Below are positions 1 through 15,477 of a DNA stretch of 38,411 nucleotides, in pieces. How positions within the stretch are numbered: the stretch's first letter is position 1; each line of letters starts with the position of its first letter. Position numbers and translations under genes: made by a program. Origin of the DNA: a virus; the IMG/VR virus record IMGVR_UViG_3300045988_111237, positions 1 to 38,411 of that record; one strand, 5' to 3'. The notes beneath the pieces are model-generated. The model had not been told where the DNA came from and searched no databases. It saw nothing but the letters and a program-made list of their open reading frames with translations.

Positions 1-3
1 TAT

Positions 4-76
4 GCCGATGTGGCTCAATTGGCAGAGCAGCTGATTTGTAATCAGCAGGTTATCGGTTCGAGTCCGATCATCGGCT
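4..76 (+). tRNA. tRNA-Thr (anticodon UGU)
   Basis: Hand-folded cloverleaf: acceptor GCCGATG/CATCGGC, D arm GCTC..GAGC, anticodon stem GCTGA/TCAGC with loop TT-TGT-AA, T arm ATCGG-TTCGAGT-CCGAT. No encoded CCA. Confidence 0.9.
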
Positions 77-93
77 TATCAGTTTAAAAATTT

Positions 94-175
94 GGGCGGA
101 TTCCCGAGTGGCCAAAGGGGACAGACTGTAAATCTGCTGCTTTATGCTTCGGTGGTTCGAATCCACCTCCGCCCA
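94..175 (+). tRNA. tRNA-Tyr (anticodon GUA), type II with long variable arm
   Basis: Acceptor GGGCGGA/TCCGCCC, anticodon loop CT-GTA-AA, long variable arm, T arm GGTGG-TTCGAAT-CCACC. Confidence 0.88.
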
Positions 176-203
176 CTTTTCCTATTTAGGAATAATTTAA
201 TAT

Positions 204-277
204 CGCGGGGTGGAGCAGTCTGGAAGCTCGTCGGGCTCATAACCCGAAGGTCATAGGTTCAAATCCTGTCCCCGCTA
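204..277 (+). tRNA. initiator tRNA-fMet (anticodon CAU)
   Basis: 5' CGCGGGG with position 1 unpaired against position 72. Three consecutive G:C pairs (GGG/CCC) close the anticodon stem. Loop CT-CAT-AA. Layout matches Bacillus-type initiator tRNA. Confidence 0.85.
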
Positions 278-296
278 CTAATTACATAAGATACAT

Positions 297-369
<73 letters not shown>

Positions 370-380
370 TCTTTTTTATT

Positions 381-422
381 CGGCGGAAACCACGTAGAAT
401 CAAGGGGTTTCCGCCGTTTTTT
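381..422 (+). terminator. Rho-independent terminator of the tRNA cluster
   Basis: 11-bp stem CGGCGGAAACC (381-391) / GGTTTCCGCCG (406-416) followed by TTTTTT (417-422). Confidence 0.85.
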
Positions 423-439
423 AATGGTTGAAAATTGCG

Positions 440-460
440 TTACTGCGCATTTACTGCGCA
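440..460. repeat. Tandem direct repeat TTACTGCGCA x2 (440-449, 451-460)
   Basis: Two identical 10-mers separated by 1 nt, lying between the tRNA terminator and the integrase stop codon. Position fits att/arm-type recombinase binding sites. Confidence 0.5.
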
Positions 461-464
461 CTTT

Positions 465-1592
465 TCATGAAAAAAGTTTTATTTGATCAATCTTTCGGTT
501 ATCATTTTCGATAACCTTCTGGGTGACATGGATGTAGATTTTGCTTGTGATCTCACTTTTGCTGTGTCCGAGCCTTCGTGCGATTTCCTCCGGTGTCATG
601 CCGTTTGCTGCCAAGAGGGAAGCATGTGTGTGTCGGAGCATATGAGGAGTGACACGTCTGCCGAGAAGCTTTTCAGATAAATCTCCAAGGTATTTTTCAT
701 AGCTTCGGTGTAATATATGATCTCCTGTCTTTGTATTCGGAATCAACAGCTTTGTTCGGATATTTCTTTCAATCATCATTTCATTTCGCCACAGCATACA
801 TTTTTTCAGTTCTGTGAGAAGATCCGGCTGGATGTGGATTGTACGCTTGGAGTGGTCTGTTTTTGGAGTTGTTACTATGTCATTGATGGAATCGTATGTT
901 TTGGATATGCGTATAGTAAGGTTGCTCATGTCTATGTCAGACACTTCCAGCGCAGATATTTCTCCGAAGCGAAGACCAGTGAGTAAAAGTATAGATGTGA
1001 TATAGTACCAGTTCCAACGATTATCTTCTTTGATTGCAGCGAGTAGGTCCTTTGCTTCGGTTGGTTCCAGATACTTTAATGTGATCTCTTGTTCTTCACA
1101 CGAATCAACAAATGGCTTGAGCTTACTGATCAGCGCCAAGTTGTTGTGATAATCATTTGCATATCCCCAGTTCAGCATGGCTTTGAATCTTGTAATATAA
1201 TTATTTACTGTACTGACCGGTTTCCCGGAATCAAGCAGTCTTGAGTTGACATACTGCGCTGTAAGGTTATTCACGATGGCATCTGGATTAAGCAGATCGA
1301 GAACCGAGGATGTAATGATCTTGTTCCTTCTTACGGTTGACTGCTTGAATGTGAGTGCCTGTGTTTTCAGGTACTCTTTTTGCAGTTGTGAAAGTGTTGT
1401 AGAGCAGTCAACACATTGAAGCTCTGCAATAGCTGCTTCAATCTTTGCAGTCAATTCTCTTTGTGCTTTGTTTCTGTTCTGCACCGAGTCTTTTGGCATT
1501 GAGACGGATGCTATTTCCAGCTTTCCGGTTAATGGGTTTTTGTACCGTGCCCGGTAAACGGCCGTACCATTTTTTTGAATATTACACCACAT
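465..1592 (-). CDS. int: Tyrosine recombinase / phage integrase
   Basis: 375 aa. SAM-like N-terminal domain. Catalytic signature LTGLRFGE (R), HMLRHTHAS (HxxR), GHSKSEITSKIYIHV (H..Y). AAGGAGG RBS at 1598-1606 on the minus strand. Confidence 0.95.
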   Translation of the reverse strand: MWCNIQKNGTAVYRARYKNPLTGKLEIASVSMPKDSVQNRNKAQRELTAKIEAAIAELQCVDCSTTLSQLQKEYLKTQALTFKQSTVRRNKIITSSVLDLLNPDAIVNNLTAQYVNSRLLDSGKPVSTVNNYITRFKAMLNWGYANDYHNNLALISKLKPFVDSCEEQEITLKYLEPTEAKDLLAAIKEDNRWNWYYITSILLLTGLRFGEISALEVSDIDMSNLTIRISKTYDSINDIVTTPKTDHSKRTIHIQPDLLTELKKCMLWRNEMMIERNIRTKLLIPNTKTGDHILHRSYEKYLGDLSEKLLGRRVTPHMLRHTHASLLAANGMTPEEIARRLGHSKSEITSKIYIHVTQKVIENDNRKIDQIKLFS

Positions 1593-10537: not shown

Positions 10538-11072
10538 ACTGCGAAATCAGAAGATCATGGAGAATATCAAACTCGTGTATTTTCATTTGAATAAATATCA
10601 TGGATTCCCAAATTACGATGACATCATACAGGAAGGTGTACTTGCACTGGTGGAAGCCATTGACAGAAGCAAGGATCTGGAACATCTGAATCGAAATTAT
10701 ATTGGAATATATATCAACAGATATGTGGAAAGATACATTCAATTTGGAGATGTGACAGTACGTACACCATTTCACTGGAAAGATGTCGAGAAACCACAGT
10801 ATGTATCACTCGACAAGATTGTAAATGATGATGGTGACAGTTATGGGGATTCGTTTCTGGAAGACAGACACGATTGTATCGGAGAACTTATTACGATGAT
10901 GGATTTTGAACATATGGTAGATCAGTTGTCTCCGAGAACACAGAAGCCGATGCGGTGCATGCTGCAAGGATATGGCATGACCGATACAGCGAAAATGTGC
11001 GGTATATCGTTTGAACGAGTGAGACAGATCAAGAAGCTGTGCAATAGAGAACTGGTTGCAAGTGAGGTGTGA
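10509..11072 (+). CDS. Phage-encoded sigma-70-family factor (regions 2 and 4)
   Basis: 187 aa. DDIIQEGVLALVEAIDR (region 2-like) and MTDTAKMCGISFERVRQIKK (region 4.2-like HTH). Overlaps the upstream gene by 29 nt. Confidence 0.7.
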   Translation: MDLTKAERIELRNQKIMENIKLVYFHLNKYHGFPNYDDIIQEGVLALVEAIDRSKDLEHLNRNYIGIYINRYVERYIQFGDVTVRTPFHWKDVEKPQYVSLDKIVNDDGDSYGDSFLEDRHDCIGELITMMDFEHMVDQLSPRTQKPMRCMLQGYGMTDTAKMCGISFERVRQIKKLCNRELVASEV

Positions 11073-11073
11073 C

Positions 11074-13581
11074 ATGACATACAGAGAATTTTTAGAAAGC
11101 AAAATTGACCTTGCAACAGACAGCGGATTTGTGGTTGATCGTTCGAAAATCAATCCGGCGTTGAAACCGCACCAGGCAGATGCTGTTGCATGGGCACTTA
11201 AGGGCGGACGCCGGGCATTGTTTGAAGCGTTCGGACTTGGAAAAACGATACAGGAGATAGAGTTTTGCTATCTGGCAGCAGAACATACCGGCGGCAGAGC
11301 TTTGATTGTATTGCCGCTTGGAGTGAAGCAGGAGTTTACCAGAGATGCGGTGGAACTGCTCGGATATGAGAAGCCGGAGTATTGCCGGACGATGGATGAG
11401 GTCAAGGCGTGCGACAGTCAGATTGTACTGACGAACTATGAGCGAGTGAGAGATGGTGATGTAGATCCAGCGTACTTTGCTGCAACATCACTGGATGAAG
11501 CAAGCGTTCTCCGCTCATTTGGAAGTAAGACTTATCAGACATTTTTGGATAAATTCAAGAACGTTCCGTATAAGCTTGTAGCCACGGCTACACCATCGCC
11601 GAATAAGTACAAGGAGCTTATACACTATGCCGGATATCTTGAAGTCATGGACACAGGACAGGCGCTGACAAGATTTTTCCAGCGTGATAGTACAAAGGCA
11701 AACAACCTGACGCTGTATCCGAACATGGAAGATGAGTTTTGGTTGTGGGTGTCAAGCTGGGCGCTGTTCGTTACAAAGCCGTCAGATCTCAATCCGGAAT
11801 ATTCAGATGCAGGCTATGATCTGCCGCCGTTGGATGTGAGATGGCATGAGATACCGATTCACTACGGAGATACGGCGGATAAGGATGGACAGATGCAGTT
11901 ATTCCAAGAAGCAGCGGAAGGTTTGAAGGAAGCGGCAGCAGTCAAGCGTGATAGCATAGATATACGAGTACAGAAGATGAAAGAGATTGTAGATGCTTCG
12001 CCGGATGATCATTTCCTGCTGTGGCATGATTTGGAGAGCGAACGGCATGCAATCAAAAAAGCGTTGCCAGAGACAGTTGATATCTATGGAGCTATGGACT
12101 ATGAGACGAGAGAACAGCGTGTAATTGATTTCTCAAACGGAAAGACACGGCTGTTTGCAACAAAGAAATCGCTGTCCGGCTCCGGGTGTAATTTCCAGCG
12201 GTATTGCCACCGTGAGATATTCCTTGGCATAGATTATGAGTTCAATGATTTCATTCAGGCAATACATCGGTGCTACAGATTCCTGCAGAGTAAGCCGGTA
12301 GTAATCGACATCATCTACATGGAGAACGAGCGGCAGATAAAGGAAGCGTTGATTGAAAAGTGGAAGAATCACAATTACATGGTCAAGCGGATGGTTGAGA
12401 TCGTGAAGAAATATGGACTGAATTCAGCGAATAAAGCTGAACGATTAGAAAGGAAGATGGGAGTGGAAGGAACAAGAGAAGAACGAACCGTGCGAGGAAA
12501 TCACTATGAAGCGGTATACGGCGATTGTGTGGAAGAAACACGTGTCATGGCAAGTAACAGCGTTGATCTGATACATACGTCGATACCATTCGGCAATCAC
12601 TACGAGTACAGCGCAAATTATAACGACTTTGGACACAACCAGGATACAGAGCGGTTCTTTGTACAGATGGACTACTTGACGCCGGAGCTTCTGCGAGTGT
12701 TAAAGCCGGGTAGAGTGGCAGCAGTGCATGTTAAAGACAGAGTGCTTTTTGGAAATGCGACTGGTACCGGGATGCCGACGATCGAGCCGTTTCATGCGGA
12801 TTGTATCGAACATTACATGAAGCATGGTTTTATGTATTTCGGCATGATCACCGTTGTGACGGATGTTGTGCGGGAGAACAACCAGACATACCGACTTGGT
12901 TGGTCTGAGCAGTGCAAGGACGGCACCAAGATGGGTGTAGGATGCCCGGAATATATCCTATTGTTCCGAAAGCTCCCAACGGATCATAGCAAAGCATATG
13001 CAGATGATCCAGTATCAAAGAGCAAGGAAGAGTACACAAGAGCACAATGGCAGATAGACGCACATGGATATTGGAGATCATCTGGTGATCGTCTGATCAG
13101 TAAGGATGAGTTGAAAGAGATATCGGTGGATAATCTGCAGAAAGCATACAGGAAATACAGCAGAGAGAGCGTGTACAACTATGAAGAGCATGTGAAGCTT
13201 GCAAAAGAGCTTGATAAGGACGGCAGACTGCCGGCCACTTTCATGGTGGTTGCTCCGGGATCATGGAACCAGATTGAGGTGTGGGATGATATCAACCGGA
13301 TGCGGACGCTTAACACGACACAGAGCCGCAGAAGAGCGCAGATGCATGTATGTCCGCTTCAACTTGATATTGTGGAGCGGATCATCAACAGATACAGCAA
13401 TCCGGGAGATGTCGTATATGATCCGTTCGGCGGACTTATGACGGTACCAATGACGGCGGTTAAGATGGGAAGATATGGTAAAGGCTGTGAGTTGAATCCT
13501 GATTATTTCCGAGATGGAGTTGGATATCTGCAGGCAGCAGAAAACGAGATGGACGAGCTGACGCTGTTCGATTTTATGTAA
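11074..13581 (+). CDS. SNF2/DEAD-like helicase fused to a C-terminal beta-class DNA methyltransferase
   Basis: 835 aa. Helicase motifs GLGKT, LDEAS, ATATPSPN, QAIHRCYRF. MTase motif IV-like TSIPF, then motif I-like VYDPFGGLMTVPMTAVKMGR..GCELNPDYF. Confidence 0.85.
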   Translation: MTYREFLESKIDLATDSGFVVDRSKINPALKPHQADAVAWALKGGRRALFEAFGLGKTIQEIEFCYLAAEHTGGRALIVLPLGVKQEFTRDAVELLGYEKPEYCRTMDEVKACDSQIVLTNYERVRDGDVDPAYFAATSLDEASVLRSFGSKTYQTFLDKFKNVPYKLVATATPSPNKYKELIHYAGYLEVMDTGQALTRFFQRDSTKANNLTLYPNMEDEFWLWVSSWALFVTKPSDLNPEYSDAGYDLPPLDVRWHEIPIHYGDTADKDGQMQLFQEAAEGLKEAAAVKRDSIDIRVQKMKEIVDASPDDHFLLWHDLESERHAIKKALPETVDIYGAMDYETREQRVIDFSNGKTRLFATKKSLSGSGCNFQRYCHREIFLGIDYEFNDFIQAIHRCYRFLQSKPVVIDIIYMENERQIKEALIEKWKNHNYMVKRMVEIVKKYGLNSANKAERLERKMGVEGTREERTVRGNHYEAVYGDCVEETRVMASNSVDLIHTSIPFGNHYEYSANYNDFGHNQDTERFFVQMDYLTPELLRVLKPGRVAAVHVKDRVLFGNATGTGMPTIEPFHADCIEHYMKHGFMYFGMITVVTDVVRENNQTYRLGWSEQCKDGTKMGVGCPEYILLFRKLPTDHSKAYADDPVSKSKEEYTRAQWQIDAHGYWRSSGDRLISKDELKEISVDNLQKAYRKYSRESVYNYEEHVKLAKELDKDGRLPATFMVVAPGSWNQIEVWDDINRMRTLNTTQSRRRAQMHVCPLQLDIVERIINRYSNPGDVVYDPFGGLMTVPMTAVKMGRYGKGCELNPDYFRDGVGYLQAAENEMDELTLFDFM

Positions 13582-13591
13582 AAAGATTATG

Positions 13592-13678
13592 TGGCGGGTT
13601 CGAGGGGAATCGAACCCCTCGGTGTCCAAAGATTTACTTACCATCTGTTCCTGCAACATTGGATTCCAGCGCAAACCC
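13592..13678 (-). ncRNA. Non-canonical tRNA-like gene with encoded CCA
   Basis: Minus strand reads GGGTTTG...AGGGG-TTCGATT-CCCCT-CGAACCC-G-CCA. Canonical T arm and a 7-bp acceptor (one G:U). No 5-bp/7-nt anticodon arm can be drawn. Confidence 0.5.
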
Positions 13679-13900
13679 ACACACACCTGCGCCCGCCGTT
13701 AGCTTTTTAAAAAAATCATATATTGCCATAATAGTCCCTCCAGTAAGTGTAATGCTTAATTTAAGATTAGTTGTAATTGTATGTTCATATATGGCGGAAC
13801 AGCATGAGATAAATAATGTAAGTAAATATGTTATTGGCAAATTATATCAATATTATATTGCCATTAAATTAGAAAATCAAGGAAAGGAGACATAAAATAC

Positions 13901-15145
13901 ATGTTACAAGAACAATTTGACTTCTTGGAAGATATTGAGATAGACAAGCCGGATGTGGAATTCCAGAAGTGGAAAGAACAGAAACGTGAAGCAAAAAGCC
14001 GGATGATTGCCATGCAATATCAGCCATATGATGTAAAAAAGAAGAGGTCAGAACTCCGTGCAATAGAATTTCTTCAGGAGATGGATAAACGTGGAAAAAC
14101 AGCGCATGTCAGTGTCGGTGGACTTGATAGCATTACATTGCATGTGTTCTTGAAATCTATCGGAATTGATGTACCGGCAATATCAGTATCAAGTCTGGAA
14201 GATGCAAGTATTCAGAAAGTGCACAAAGCGCTTGGTGTGACAAGTCTGCATTCATATAAGACAAAGACACAGGTATTGAATGAGGTTGGATTTCCGGTAA
14301 TCAGTAAGCGTATAGCAGGTAAGATCGCATTGTTACAGAATCCGACGGAAAAGAATAAAACGGTCAGACATGCAATTATAACAGGTGAATGTGGAGAACT
14401 CGGACATTTTCAGAAGAATAGCAGGATGAAACTGCCGCAGAAGTGGTTGAAATTGTTCGGAGGGTATGAAAACGAAAATGAAGGAGTGAACTATCAGAAA
14501 CCGGATTTCAAGGTATCAAATGATTGTTGCTACTGGCTCAAAGAAAAACCATGTGACGACTGGGCGAGGGAACATCAGAGCTATCCGTATCTTGGAATGA
14601 TGGCATCGGAAGGTGGGCAGAGAGAAGAAGCGCTTACCGATCACGGATGCAACTACTATGGAAAAACTACAATGCGATCGGCTCCGTTTGCTCCGTATAT
14701 GCGAAATGACATATTAAAGCTGGCGTTGGAAATGGATGATTGGTATCACAAAAACATGGATGTGTTTGAGAAGTTGTACTATGAACAGTCGTACAGCAGA
14801 GACAAGAATGGAAATGTAATACCATATGAACCGGTAGAGCATATCATACCAGATATTTACGGAGAGATTGTTCGGGACCCGAACGGAAACCTTCAGACTA
14901 CCGGAGCGCAGAGAACCGGATGCAGTATGTGCGGGTTTGGAATCCACATGGAGAAAAGGCCACATAGATTTGATAAATTGCGAGAACGTAACCAGAAAGA
15001 ATGGGAGTATTACATGTACCGGTGTTGTACAGATCCAGAGACTGGAGAGAAATATGGCTGGGGAAGAGTTCTCGATTACATAGGAGTTCCGTGGGAAGAT
15101 TATCCGGCAATTCAGATGGAGTTGCCATTAGATCAGATGATGTAG
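13901..15145 (+). CDS. PAPS-reductase-like PP-loop ATPase family protein
   Basis: 414 aa. PP-loop variant SVGGLDS. Cys clusters CCYWLKEKPC and CSMCGFG. AAAGGAG RBS. Confidence 0.75.
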   Translation: MLQEQFDFLEDIEIDKPDVEFQKWKEQKREAKSRMIAMQYQPYDVKKKRSELRAIEFLQEMDKRGKTAHVSVGGLDSITLHVFLKSIGIDVPAISVSSLEDASIQKVHKALGVTSLHSYKTKTQVLNEVGFPVISKRIAGKIALLQNPTEKNKTVRHAIITGECGELGHFQKNSRMKLPQKWLKLFGGYENENEGVNYQKPDFKVSNDCCYWLKEKPCDDWAREHQSYPYLGMMASEGGQREEALTDHGCNYYGKTTMRSAPFAPYMRNDILKLALEMDDWYHKNMDVFEKLYYEQSYSRDKNGNVIPYEPVEHIIPDIYGEIVRDPNGNLQTTGAQRTGCSMCGFGIHMEKRPHRFDKLRERNQKEWEYYMYRCCTDPETGEKYGWGRVLDYIGVPWEDYPAIQMELPLDQMM

Positions 15146-15168: not shown

Positions 15169-15197
15169 TTGAATAATGATGGTTGGAGTGGTATAAT
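15169..15197 (+). promoter_or_regulatory. Near-consensus sigma-70 promoter TTGAAT-17-(TGg)TATAAT
   Basis: -35 at 15169-15174, extended -10 TGGTATAAT at 15189-15197. Confidence 0.75.
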
Positions 15198-15228
15198 ATC
15201 CTTACCAATACGAAGGAGGATATGTATT

Positions 15229-15477
15229 ATGGGTTTAATTGATAACACAAAACAGTTTTGTTTAACATGCAAAAATAAGGGTGTAGTAGACACTATAAGT
15301 GCAGAGGACATGGATAAATTTGATGAAGAATATGATAGACTAGATAAAATGGGATGTCTTTCCGCAGATCAAGTTTATGACAAAGCCTCACAAGGATGCA
15401 AAAAAGATTATTTCTACTGTCCGTATTGTGAAAATGGACAAAAATATAAAGATAAATATCCTAAGTACAGAGCATAA
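15229..15477 (+). CDS. Small zinc-ribbon protein in a self-contained transcription unit
   Basis: 82 aa. CLTCKNKG and CPYCENG CxxC pairs. GAAGGAGG RBS. Confidence 0.65.
   Translation: MGLIDNTKQFCLTCKNKGVVDTISAEDMDKFDEEYDRLDKMGCLSADQVYDKASQGCKKDYFYCPYCENGQKYKDKYPKYRA

Follow-up and report, generated by a model that had tools for sequence, protein, structure and literature searches.

The window analysed here is the whole 38,411-nucleotide virus record IMGVR_UViG_3300045988_111237 from IMG/VR, a prophage from a gut Lachnospiraceae bacterium and a temperate siphophage. Our subject is a plus-strand gene (13901..15145) encoding a 414-aa PP-loop protein that resembles reductases of 3'-phosphoadenosine 5'-phosphosulfate (PAPS) and adenosine 5'-phosphosulfate (APS). 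This open reading frame (ORF) belongs to the PHROG 424 family, starts with ATG, and is preceded by AGGAG (13885..13889, plus strand), which we read from the sequence as resembling a ribosome-binding site (RBS), 11 nt 5' of the start codon. It is located between the recombination and replication genes and the terminase. Following the integrase, the window encodes a YqaJ exonuclease, DUF1351, RecT and DUF1064 proteins, a Lin1244-type replication organiser, a sigma-like factor, and a helicase-methylase; 3' of the helicase-methylase are the PAPS-like ORF, small ORFs, an HNH endonuclease, the small and large terminase subunits, and the portal. The helicase-methylase is a fusion of an SNF2 helicase with an N6-N4 DNA methyltransferase (MTase) (11056..13581, plus strand; PF00176 and PF01555; PHROG 16, E=3e-125). 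Translation of the fusion probably begins at the ATG at 11074; the preceding sigma-like ORF extends over the TTG at 11056. The 3' end of the helicase-MTase gene is 320 bp from the PAPS-like ORF, and the two genes are not fused. Between them is a replaceable 327-bp cassette on the minus strand (13579..13905). An earlier note, made from the sequence alone, had read the helicase-MTase, a tRNA-like gene within this cassette, and the PAPS-like gene as a candidate nucleic-acid modification module of three parts.

The PAPS-like protein has a small set of strictly conserved motifs. Its PP-loop variant SVGGLDS spans residues 71-77 (14111..14131, plus strand), and S71, G74, D76 and S77 are invariant among 72 aligned sequences. 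The SGGxDS motif is thus present as a variant whose sole change is valine for the first serine. Distant relatives carry the canonical SFSGGKDS at this position of the alignment, and in the family profile the region aligns with the PP-loops of CysD, CysH and GMP synthetases. A family-specific insertion, GFPVISK...LQNPT..N..R...TG, covers residues 130-200 (14288..14500, plus strand), with G130, P132, S135, K136, R156 and G162 invariant or nearly so. The insertion is net basic (12 K/R versus 6 D/E) and may serve to bind the substrate, putatively a nucleic acid. Three cysteine motifs follow. CCYWLKEKPC (residues 209-218; 14525-14554, plus strand) opens with the invariant dyad C209-C210 (14525..14530, plus strand), which aligns to the CC of 'HECCRLRK' in the Mycobacterium tuberculosis APS reductase 7lhr. 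The G249-C250-N251 motif (14645..14653, plus strand) is invariant or nearly so and could provide a cluster ligand or a persulfide carrier. Finally, CSMCGFG (residues 341-347; 14921-14941, plus strand) includes C341-x-x-C344 (14921..14932, plus strand) inside an RTGCxxCxFG motif, in which T339, G340, C341, C344, F346 and G347 are conserved family-wide. E100, R241 and R356 are also invariant or nearly so in the alignments. Over thousands of sequences, the PP-loop variant and the CC, GCN and CxxC motifs are strictly kept. The ORF, the PP-loop variant and the CCYWLKEKPC and CSMCGFG clusters had been listed in the earlier note; all are present, and their residues are invariant or nearly so in homologues.

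The family is large. More than 5000 homologues were found in a large protein collection, mostly in Lachnospiraceae prophages, and they reduce to 1232 cluster representatives at 50% identity. The identical sequence is already public as DAE01030.1 / A0A8S5P1Q7, under the name 'adenosine phosphosulfate reductase', and occurs on 92 contigs. Within PHROG 424, annotated 'phosphoadenosine phosphosulfate reductase', the window protein is 100% identical to DAE01030.1 of Myoviridae sp. ctXVO17, 69% identical to WAK79656.1 of Clostridium phage Villandry, and 59% identical to the Saumur phage protein. All share the PP-loop variant and the cysteine motifs, and we found no essential difference between the window protein and these members. 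We conclude that the locus is a typical representative of a common, uncharacterised phage family and not a unique system. The 90%-identity cluster of the 414-aa protein also lists Bacteroides ABC-F ATPases of about 545 aa, and its representative is one of these; the grouping appears to be an artefact of clustering and could mislead automated annotation.

Placing the protein in a superfamily required its relatives as well as its own sequence. The protein itself matched PHROG 424 'PAPS reductase' (E=4e-22 over residues 23-402). Searched alone, it had no Pfam match even at E=10, no NCBIfam match at E<=0.1, and none in PADLOC; a phmmer search of the PDB returned nothing, and a PDB search with a narrow profile returned noise only. 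Profile tests were performed on 29 diverse full-length homologues at 30-60% identity. PF01507 (PAPS_reduct) was matched by 23 of the 29 (best E-value 4.6e-29), which makes the membership of the window protein transitive and not direct. Among NCBIfam models, CysH/APS-reductase models matched 20-21 of the homologues, archaeal PRK13795-type models 18, CysD 15, TtcA two, and DndC one; E-values to TIGR02055, TIGR00434 and NF002537 were about 1e-13 to 1e-17, with a best of 1.6e-17. The PADLOC models for BrxP matched 19 (best 2e-22), those for SspD 15, and those for DndC three to four. A profile built from the 29 sequences identified, in the PDB, CysD 1zun, CysH 6vpu/1sur/2o8v and the M. tuberculosis APS reductase 7lhr.

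The predicted structure gave the same placement. An AlphaFold2 model built with the 72-sequence alignment reached a predicted local distance difference test score (pLDDT) of 91.8 and a predicted TM-score (pTM) of 0.87; it superseded an initial run with a shallow alignment (pLDDT 65.5), for which Foldseek matches were not significant. The best Foldseek match was the APS reductase 4bwv (probability 1.00, target TM-score 0.49), then CysH 6vpu (0.99), with GMP synthetases, NAD synthetases and TtuA among the weaker matches, and a search of BFVD returned viral 'PAPS reductases'. The model and the Foldseek matches support a Rossmann-like PP-loop fold. Taken together, we conclude that the protein belongs to the PAPS-reductase branch of PP-loop ATPases, as a divergent and enlarged member that falls outside every characterised subgroup. 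The profile and structure evidence therefore bears out the earlier assignment to a PAPS-reductase-like PP-loop superfamily with Fe-S-type cysteines.

One explanation is that the gene is what its name says, a true PAPS/APS reductase carried as an auxiliary metabolic gene (AMG) that boosts host sulfate assimilation. Assimilatory APS/PAPS reductases (CysH; 4bwv, 6vpu, 2goy, 7lhr) are the closest solved folds. The cysteines C209, C210, C341 and C344 do not vary, the first two align to the iron-sulfur (Fe-S) ligands of APS reductase, and the resulting CC...CxxC is the pattern of Fe-S assimilatory APS reductases. The database name points the same way, and papers list the PAPS-reductase gene class as an AMG under 'host metabolism' (PMC11318856; also a Bifidobacterium preprint). 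Against this, the window protein matches no CysH/APS-reductase model and its relatives match with modest E-values; identity to the solved enzymes is about 10%, and large family-specific insertions, about 190 aa in excess of these reductases, hold the TM-score at about 0.5. CysH-type reductases also carry a C-terminal catalytic cysteine in an ECG[LI]H motif. In our 29- and 72-sequence alignments no cysteine C-terminal to C344 is conserved, and therefore the CysH-type catalytic cysteine is without a counterpart. The 'ECGELGH' at residues 163-169, which falls within the insertion, was weighed as a counterpart of the CysH catalytic motif and rejected, because its conservation does not extend beyond the close clade. 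Further, real PAPS reductases have lost the ATP-type PP-loop, which is retained in this family, with SGGxDS in distant members. The gene is also situated amid replication and methylase genes, and no other sulfur-assimilation genes were found nearby. With these results, we regard a metabolic reductase as very unlikely.

The branch also includes DndC, SspD and BrxP, which insert sulfur in DNA phosphorothioation systems. They share the PF01507 PP-loop domain and a DNA-modification context with our family, and relatives of the window protein match their hidden Markov models; for DndC, these are one of the 29 with TIGR03183 (1.3e-4) and the three to four found with PADLOC. DndC has been described with a cysteine dyad (PMC10853773), and BrxP together with BrxC makes phosphorothioates (PTs) (PMC12914056). 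The window protein differs from all three in its own basic insertion and C-terminal RTGCxxCxFG motif, and it is phage-borne and stand-alone. In the window and about 160 loci the neighbours are phage genes for replication, recombination or methylases; neither the neighbour clusters that recur nor the contigs with Pfam annotation showed a DndD/E-type gene, the surveyed neighbours included no sspB/sspC or brxC/Z/L partner, and DUF4007 was not found in the window protein. Three fusion proteins of the family, P0152, P0159 and P0166, were checked for partner domains and were uninformative, giving a sub-threshold Sp-DndD match, no match, and a nitrogenase-type domain, respectively.

The IbrA/IbrB-type pairs, each of a PAPS-reductase-like and a ParB-like protein, were also compared. 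In four related loci (L072, L074, L076 and L094) a ParB_N protein is encoded directly downstream of the homologue; in this clade, though, the pairing is rare, and the window protein has no DUF3440 or other Pfam match. As the earlier note had observed, the ParB-type partner appears to be absent here: tblastn with a related ParB_N protein, a single query and not a profile scan of every ORF, found nothing in the window. A literature search on IbrA/IbrB found nothing relevant.

Two published precedents link phage PAPS-type domains to counter-defence. In Vibrio crassostreae podophage 44E38.1, p0018 encodes a fusion of a PAPS domain to Dam (PAPS-domain::Dam), and moving p0018 with its neighbour p0019 between Vibrio podophages conferred an anti-Dnd phenotype (Piel et al., bioRxiv 10.1101/2021.05.05.442762). 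Our locus resembles this one in that a PAPS-type domain of a phage is linked physically to a DNA methylase; p0018 is a fusion with a short PAPS domain of about 175 aa, whereas the window protein is separate, has 414 aa, and is coupled by gene adjacency. PAPS reductases have also been reported in Aca-regulated anti-defence operons, where a role in evading restriction-modification or PT systems was proposed (PMC13551039). The view that no characterised system resembles this arrangement is outdated in light of both reports.

To define the genomic setting, we surveyed 80 IMG/VR loci and 80 loci from a collection with one genome per species (almost all Lachnospiraceae and relatives), and drew further context from annotated phages and from metagenome contigs with precomputed Pfam matches. 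In nearly every case the PAPS-like gene was within the replication/recombination region of a temperate phage. Methylases of three families are repeatedly found next to it: the helicase-MTase, a 532-aa C5-methylase (PF00145), and a Dam-type methylase (PF02086). A member of these families was within 7 kb of the gene in 33 of 74 species-level loci, within two genes in 26, and the direct neighbour in 14, compared with 4.6+-1.9 expected from a permutation null (P~1e-4). Among the IMG/VR loci, a methylase adjoined the gene in 27 of 76. The order of the genes is permuted, and we observed helicase-MTase/PAPS, PAPS/helicase-MTase, PAPS/helicase-MTase/C5-MTase, helicase-MTase/C5-MTase/PAPS, helicase-MTase/PAPS/C5-MTase, and PAPS/Dam/C5-MTase. 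In 14 of the 80 species-level loci, the helicase-MTase (76-97% identity) and the PAPS-like gene were no more than ~1.35 kb apart, with the helicase-MTase upstream in seven and downstream in seven. In each sample, 41-42 loci had none of the three families within two genes, and no methylase adjoins the Villandry and Saumur phage copies. We conclude that the methylase linkage is real but facultative, and that the slot of the PAPS-like gene is variable and gathers DNA methyltransferases as well. The linkage fits a shared slot for DNA-modification or anti-restriction cargo, possibly with functional cooperation.

Two of the neighbouring proteins deserve mention on their own. The 532-aa C5-methylase is encoded at 6366-7967 of L004, in 26 other IMG/VR loci and in about 20 genome loci; its C-terminal half has several repeated 'EPLxTVT(T/S)' segments, which we take to recall multispecific phage C5-methylases. 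A 317-aa protein (for example at 11171-12124 of L089) is encoded in five species-level loci at position +1 or +2 relative to the PAPS-like gene. It carries a radical-SAM-like CxxxCxxC motif, GCPRGCSFC, and has no Pfam match; its local alignment with the PAPS-like protein around RTGCxxCxFG is weak (30% over 70 aa, E=0.003).

The same survey bears on the proposal that the helicase-MTase, the tRNA-like RNA and the PAPS-like enzyme form an obligate three-part system. In the window and a few near-identical contigs the three elements adjoin one another, and for phage Mu Mom a tRNA-dependent hypermodification of DNA has been reported. The order helicase-MTase/cassette/PAPS-like gene, however, was seen in near-identical relatives alone (L003, L009 and a few IMG/VR contigs), 12 close relatives have a C5-methylase gene in the slot of the cassette, and at most loci the PAPS-like gene is without either partner. 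In turn, the helicase-MTase is present in 331 phage records, mainly of Mycobacterium, Flavobacterium and Arthrobacter phages, mostly genera without a PAPS-like match. An obligate partnership with the helicase-MTase was rejected from both sides, since each gene is frequently found without the other. Nor is the helicase-MTase atypical, as the earlier note had held: those 331 records carry it with up to 55% full-length identity, many mycobacteriophages encode a 'DNA helicase/methylase' that is 55% identical over the full length and adjoins an HNH endonuclease there, and the protein is very widespread in phages.

The cassette itself contains four features on the minus strand: a promoter-like TTGATT-17-TATAAT (13880->13852); the RBS GGAGGG; a 31-aa ORF, MAIYDFFKKLTAGAGVCGFALESNVAGTDGK, which runs from the ATG at 13729 to a stop near 13634; and a region resembling a T-arm/acceptor hairpin (13678->13592). 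The 31-aa peptide has a hydrophobic core, GAGVCGF. The hairpin region had been described as a tRNA-like gene, and the evidence is weaker than that description. ARAGORN made no tRNA call at 13592-13678 and Rfam gathering thresholds were not reached; the hairpin matched the two ends of the transfer-messenger RNA (tmRNA) model with 15.5 bits (E=3e-4) against a threshold of 47, and the fold z-score of the region was -2.35. Given the missing ARAGORN call and a tmRNA-end match that is sub-threshold only, we rejected the reading of 13592-13678 as a genuine gene for a tRNA or tmRNA. Repeats flanking this intergenic region had also been reported, at about 13719 and 13856. Two exact copies of TATATTGCCAT do exist, at 13719 and 13854, and they correspond to the start codon region of the 31-aa ORF and the -10 region of the promoter-like site. 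With one mismatch allowed, TATATTGCCAT had four matches in the window versus 1.6 expected, and nine of 100 shuffles reached four; because these counts are not significant, we rejected the motif as a regulatory repeat.

We asked which gene the cassette accompanies. In the survey, the 327-bp segment is common to the window, L003 and L009 only, with a 76%-identical copy elsewhere in L023. A pattern scan identified 11 IMG/VR contigs with the cassette (L174-L184), in two sequence variants, all from one metagenome project and mutually related. Both variants retain the ORF with its start, stop and RBS; variant B is without the CCA end. The cassette was convergent to a helicase-MTase or C5-MTase gene and no more than ~700 bp from the methylase 3' end in 11 of 11 contigs, and the PAPS-like gene was within 2 kb in six of 11. 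Therefore the cassette follows methylases and not the PAPS-like gene, and it is probably not a functional partner of that gene. It might encode a small toxin or membrane peptide, or serve the methylase island as a regulatory element or terminator. The constant proximity to an island methylase could be counted in favor of the three-part system, while the sub-threshold RNA similarity and the conserved 31-aa ORF with its own RBS count against it. Overall, the neighbourhood survey largely refutes that system, and we consider it extremely unlikely. What stands of the module originally proposed is the enrichment of the helicase-MTase and other methylases beside the PAPS-like gene, with significant clustering in permuted orders; the three-part claim and the place given in it to the tRNA-like element do not, as the cassette tracks methylase 3' ends.

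The cassette results also weigh on the idea that the protein is a TtcA/TtuA-like tRNA thiolase, or another PP-loop enzyme modifying RNA, which would retune RNAs of the host or the phage and perhaps act on the adjoining tRNA-like RNA. A PP-loop with Fe-S-type cysteines defines TtcA and TtuA too, TtuA appears among the weaker Foldseek matches, and the tRNA-like hairpin is 220 bp upstream of the gene. Yet matches to the TtcA model (two of the 29 relatives) and PF01171 (four of 29, 5e-4) were all weak, the Foldseek probability for TtuA was <=0.35 versus 1.0 for APS reductase, and the window protein lacks an N-terminal CxxC. The cassette, moreover, is missing at most loci, loses its CCA end in variant B, and tracks methylases. 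We therefore think an RNA-modifying role improbable.

The explanation we favour, held tentatively and with a little less than even confidence, is that the gene encodes a stand-alone phage PP-loop enzyme of the PAPS-reductase/DndC-SspD-BrxP branch that acts in DNA modification or anti-restriction. A mechanism can be proposed from the chemistry of the family. The SVGGLDS PP-loop would bind ATP and adenylate a nucleic-acid oxygen, most likely of DNA, while the basic insertion at 130-200 would grip the DNA. An Fe-S cluster or a set of cysteines (C209/C210, C250, C341, C344) would receive sulfur from a host cysteine desulfurase, and the sulfur would then be delivered to the substrate with release of AMP. 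As a result, the phage DNA might be covalently marked, or host marking disturbed, allowing escape from restriction that is methylation-independent or phosphorothioate-based (Dnd, Ssp, BREX type 4). The enzyme would act beside whichever phage methylases adjoin its gene. Our data establish the fold and superfamily, the conserved motifs, the place in the genome and the statistical tie to methylases, whereas the use of ATP, the Fe-S binding, the sulfur chemistry, DNA as the substrate and the role against restriction are predictions.

Several observations weigh against this explanation. The first PP-loop serine is valine in the window protein, binding of an Fe-S cluster is predicted from sequence motifs, and the protein matches none of the DndC, SspD or BrxP models. 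These enzymes need ATPase and DNA-targeting partners (DndD/E, SspB/C, BrxC), and such partners were not seen among the surveyed neighbours of the PAPS-like gene. A Bacteroides PAPS-reductase gene without a partner ATPase gave no detectable PT (PMC12914056). The Vibrio precedent involved transfer of two genes and a short PAPS domain, and tblastn at E<=1e-5 with our protein did not list Vibrio phage 44E38.1. Over half of the loci are without any of the three methylase families within 7 kb, and therefore the linkage could reflect merely a shared cargo hotspot. Distant homologues (23-28% identity) are located in the head-morphogenesis module and not in the early region. Our literature search found no biochemical characterisation of this phage family.

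Two further explanations differ from the favoured one in what the protein does. It could be an anti-defence protein that modifies nothing, either a mimic of DndC/SspD/BrxP that titrates or subverts the PT machinery or its sulfur supply, or a consumer of a small molecule or nucleotide. A stand-alone gene in a variable early region is typical of anti-defence cargo, no DNA-targeting or ATPase partner was found, and the Vibrio anti-Dnd precedent leaves the mechanism undefined. The strict retention of the nucleotide-binding loop and of all five cysteines argues for catalysis instead of mimicry, and the close grouping with DNA methylases speaks for DNA as the target; we hold this alternative to be fairly unlikely. 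Alternatively, the protein could be a self-sufficient enzyme that inserts sulfur into phage DNA, or otherwise replaces an oxygen, with no ATPase of the DndD/SspC/BrxC type. Targeting would come from the adjacent methylases or from its own insertion, the product would be a new phage DNA modification, for example base thiolation or a partner-independent phosphorothioate, and the cassette would regulate the island. The methylases borrowed would be the helicase-MTase, the multispecific-looking C5-MTase, and Dam. We give this more ambitious version a small chance, slightly above that of an RNA-modifying enzyme.

The distinction matters for annotation, since 'PAPS reductase' genes are among the AMGs most often reported from gut prophages. 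We found no CysH catalytic tail, the PP-loop remains of the ATP type, and the gene is linked statistically to DNA methylases; these results argue against that label and for DNA modification or anti-restriction. If the favoured explanation is true, thousands of annotations change, and the family would be a widespread counter-defence enzyme of Lachnospiraceae phages, relevant to the PT defences of several percent of gut bacteria; PT systems have been found in about 7.7% of gut isolates (PMC12914056).

A few further features were recorded. The distant homologues with a head-module location come from L172 (Clostridium phage XP41-N3) and L173 (Ruminococcus phage NatCom_29429); the gene either follows those for the portal and a minor head protein or is placed between portal and head maturation protease. 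Directly downstream of the PAPS-like gene in the window, a 102-aa ORF (15169-15477) has CxxC...CxxC pairs and appears zinc-ribbon-like; it matches no Pfam or PHROG family and is kept in the closest relatives only (five loci). At the left end of the window, four tRNA genes (Thr/Tyr/Met/Phe; 4-371) form an array, and the next gene encodes a minus-strand tyrosine integrase (465-1592). The array and the adjoining integrase (window 1-1592) probably mark the junction of prophage and host beside a tRNA cluster.

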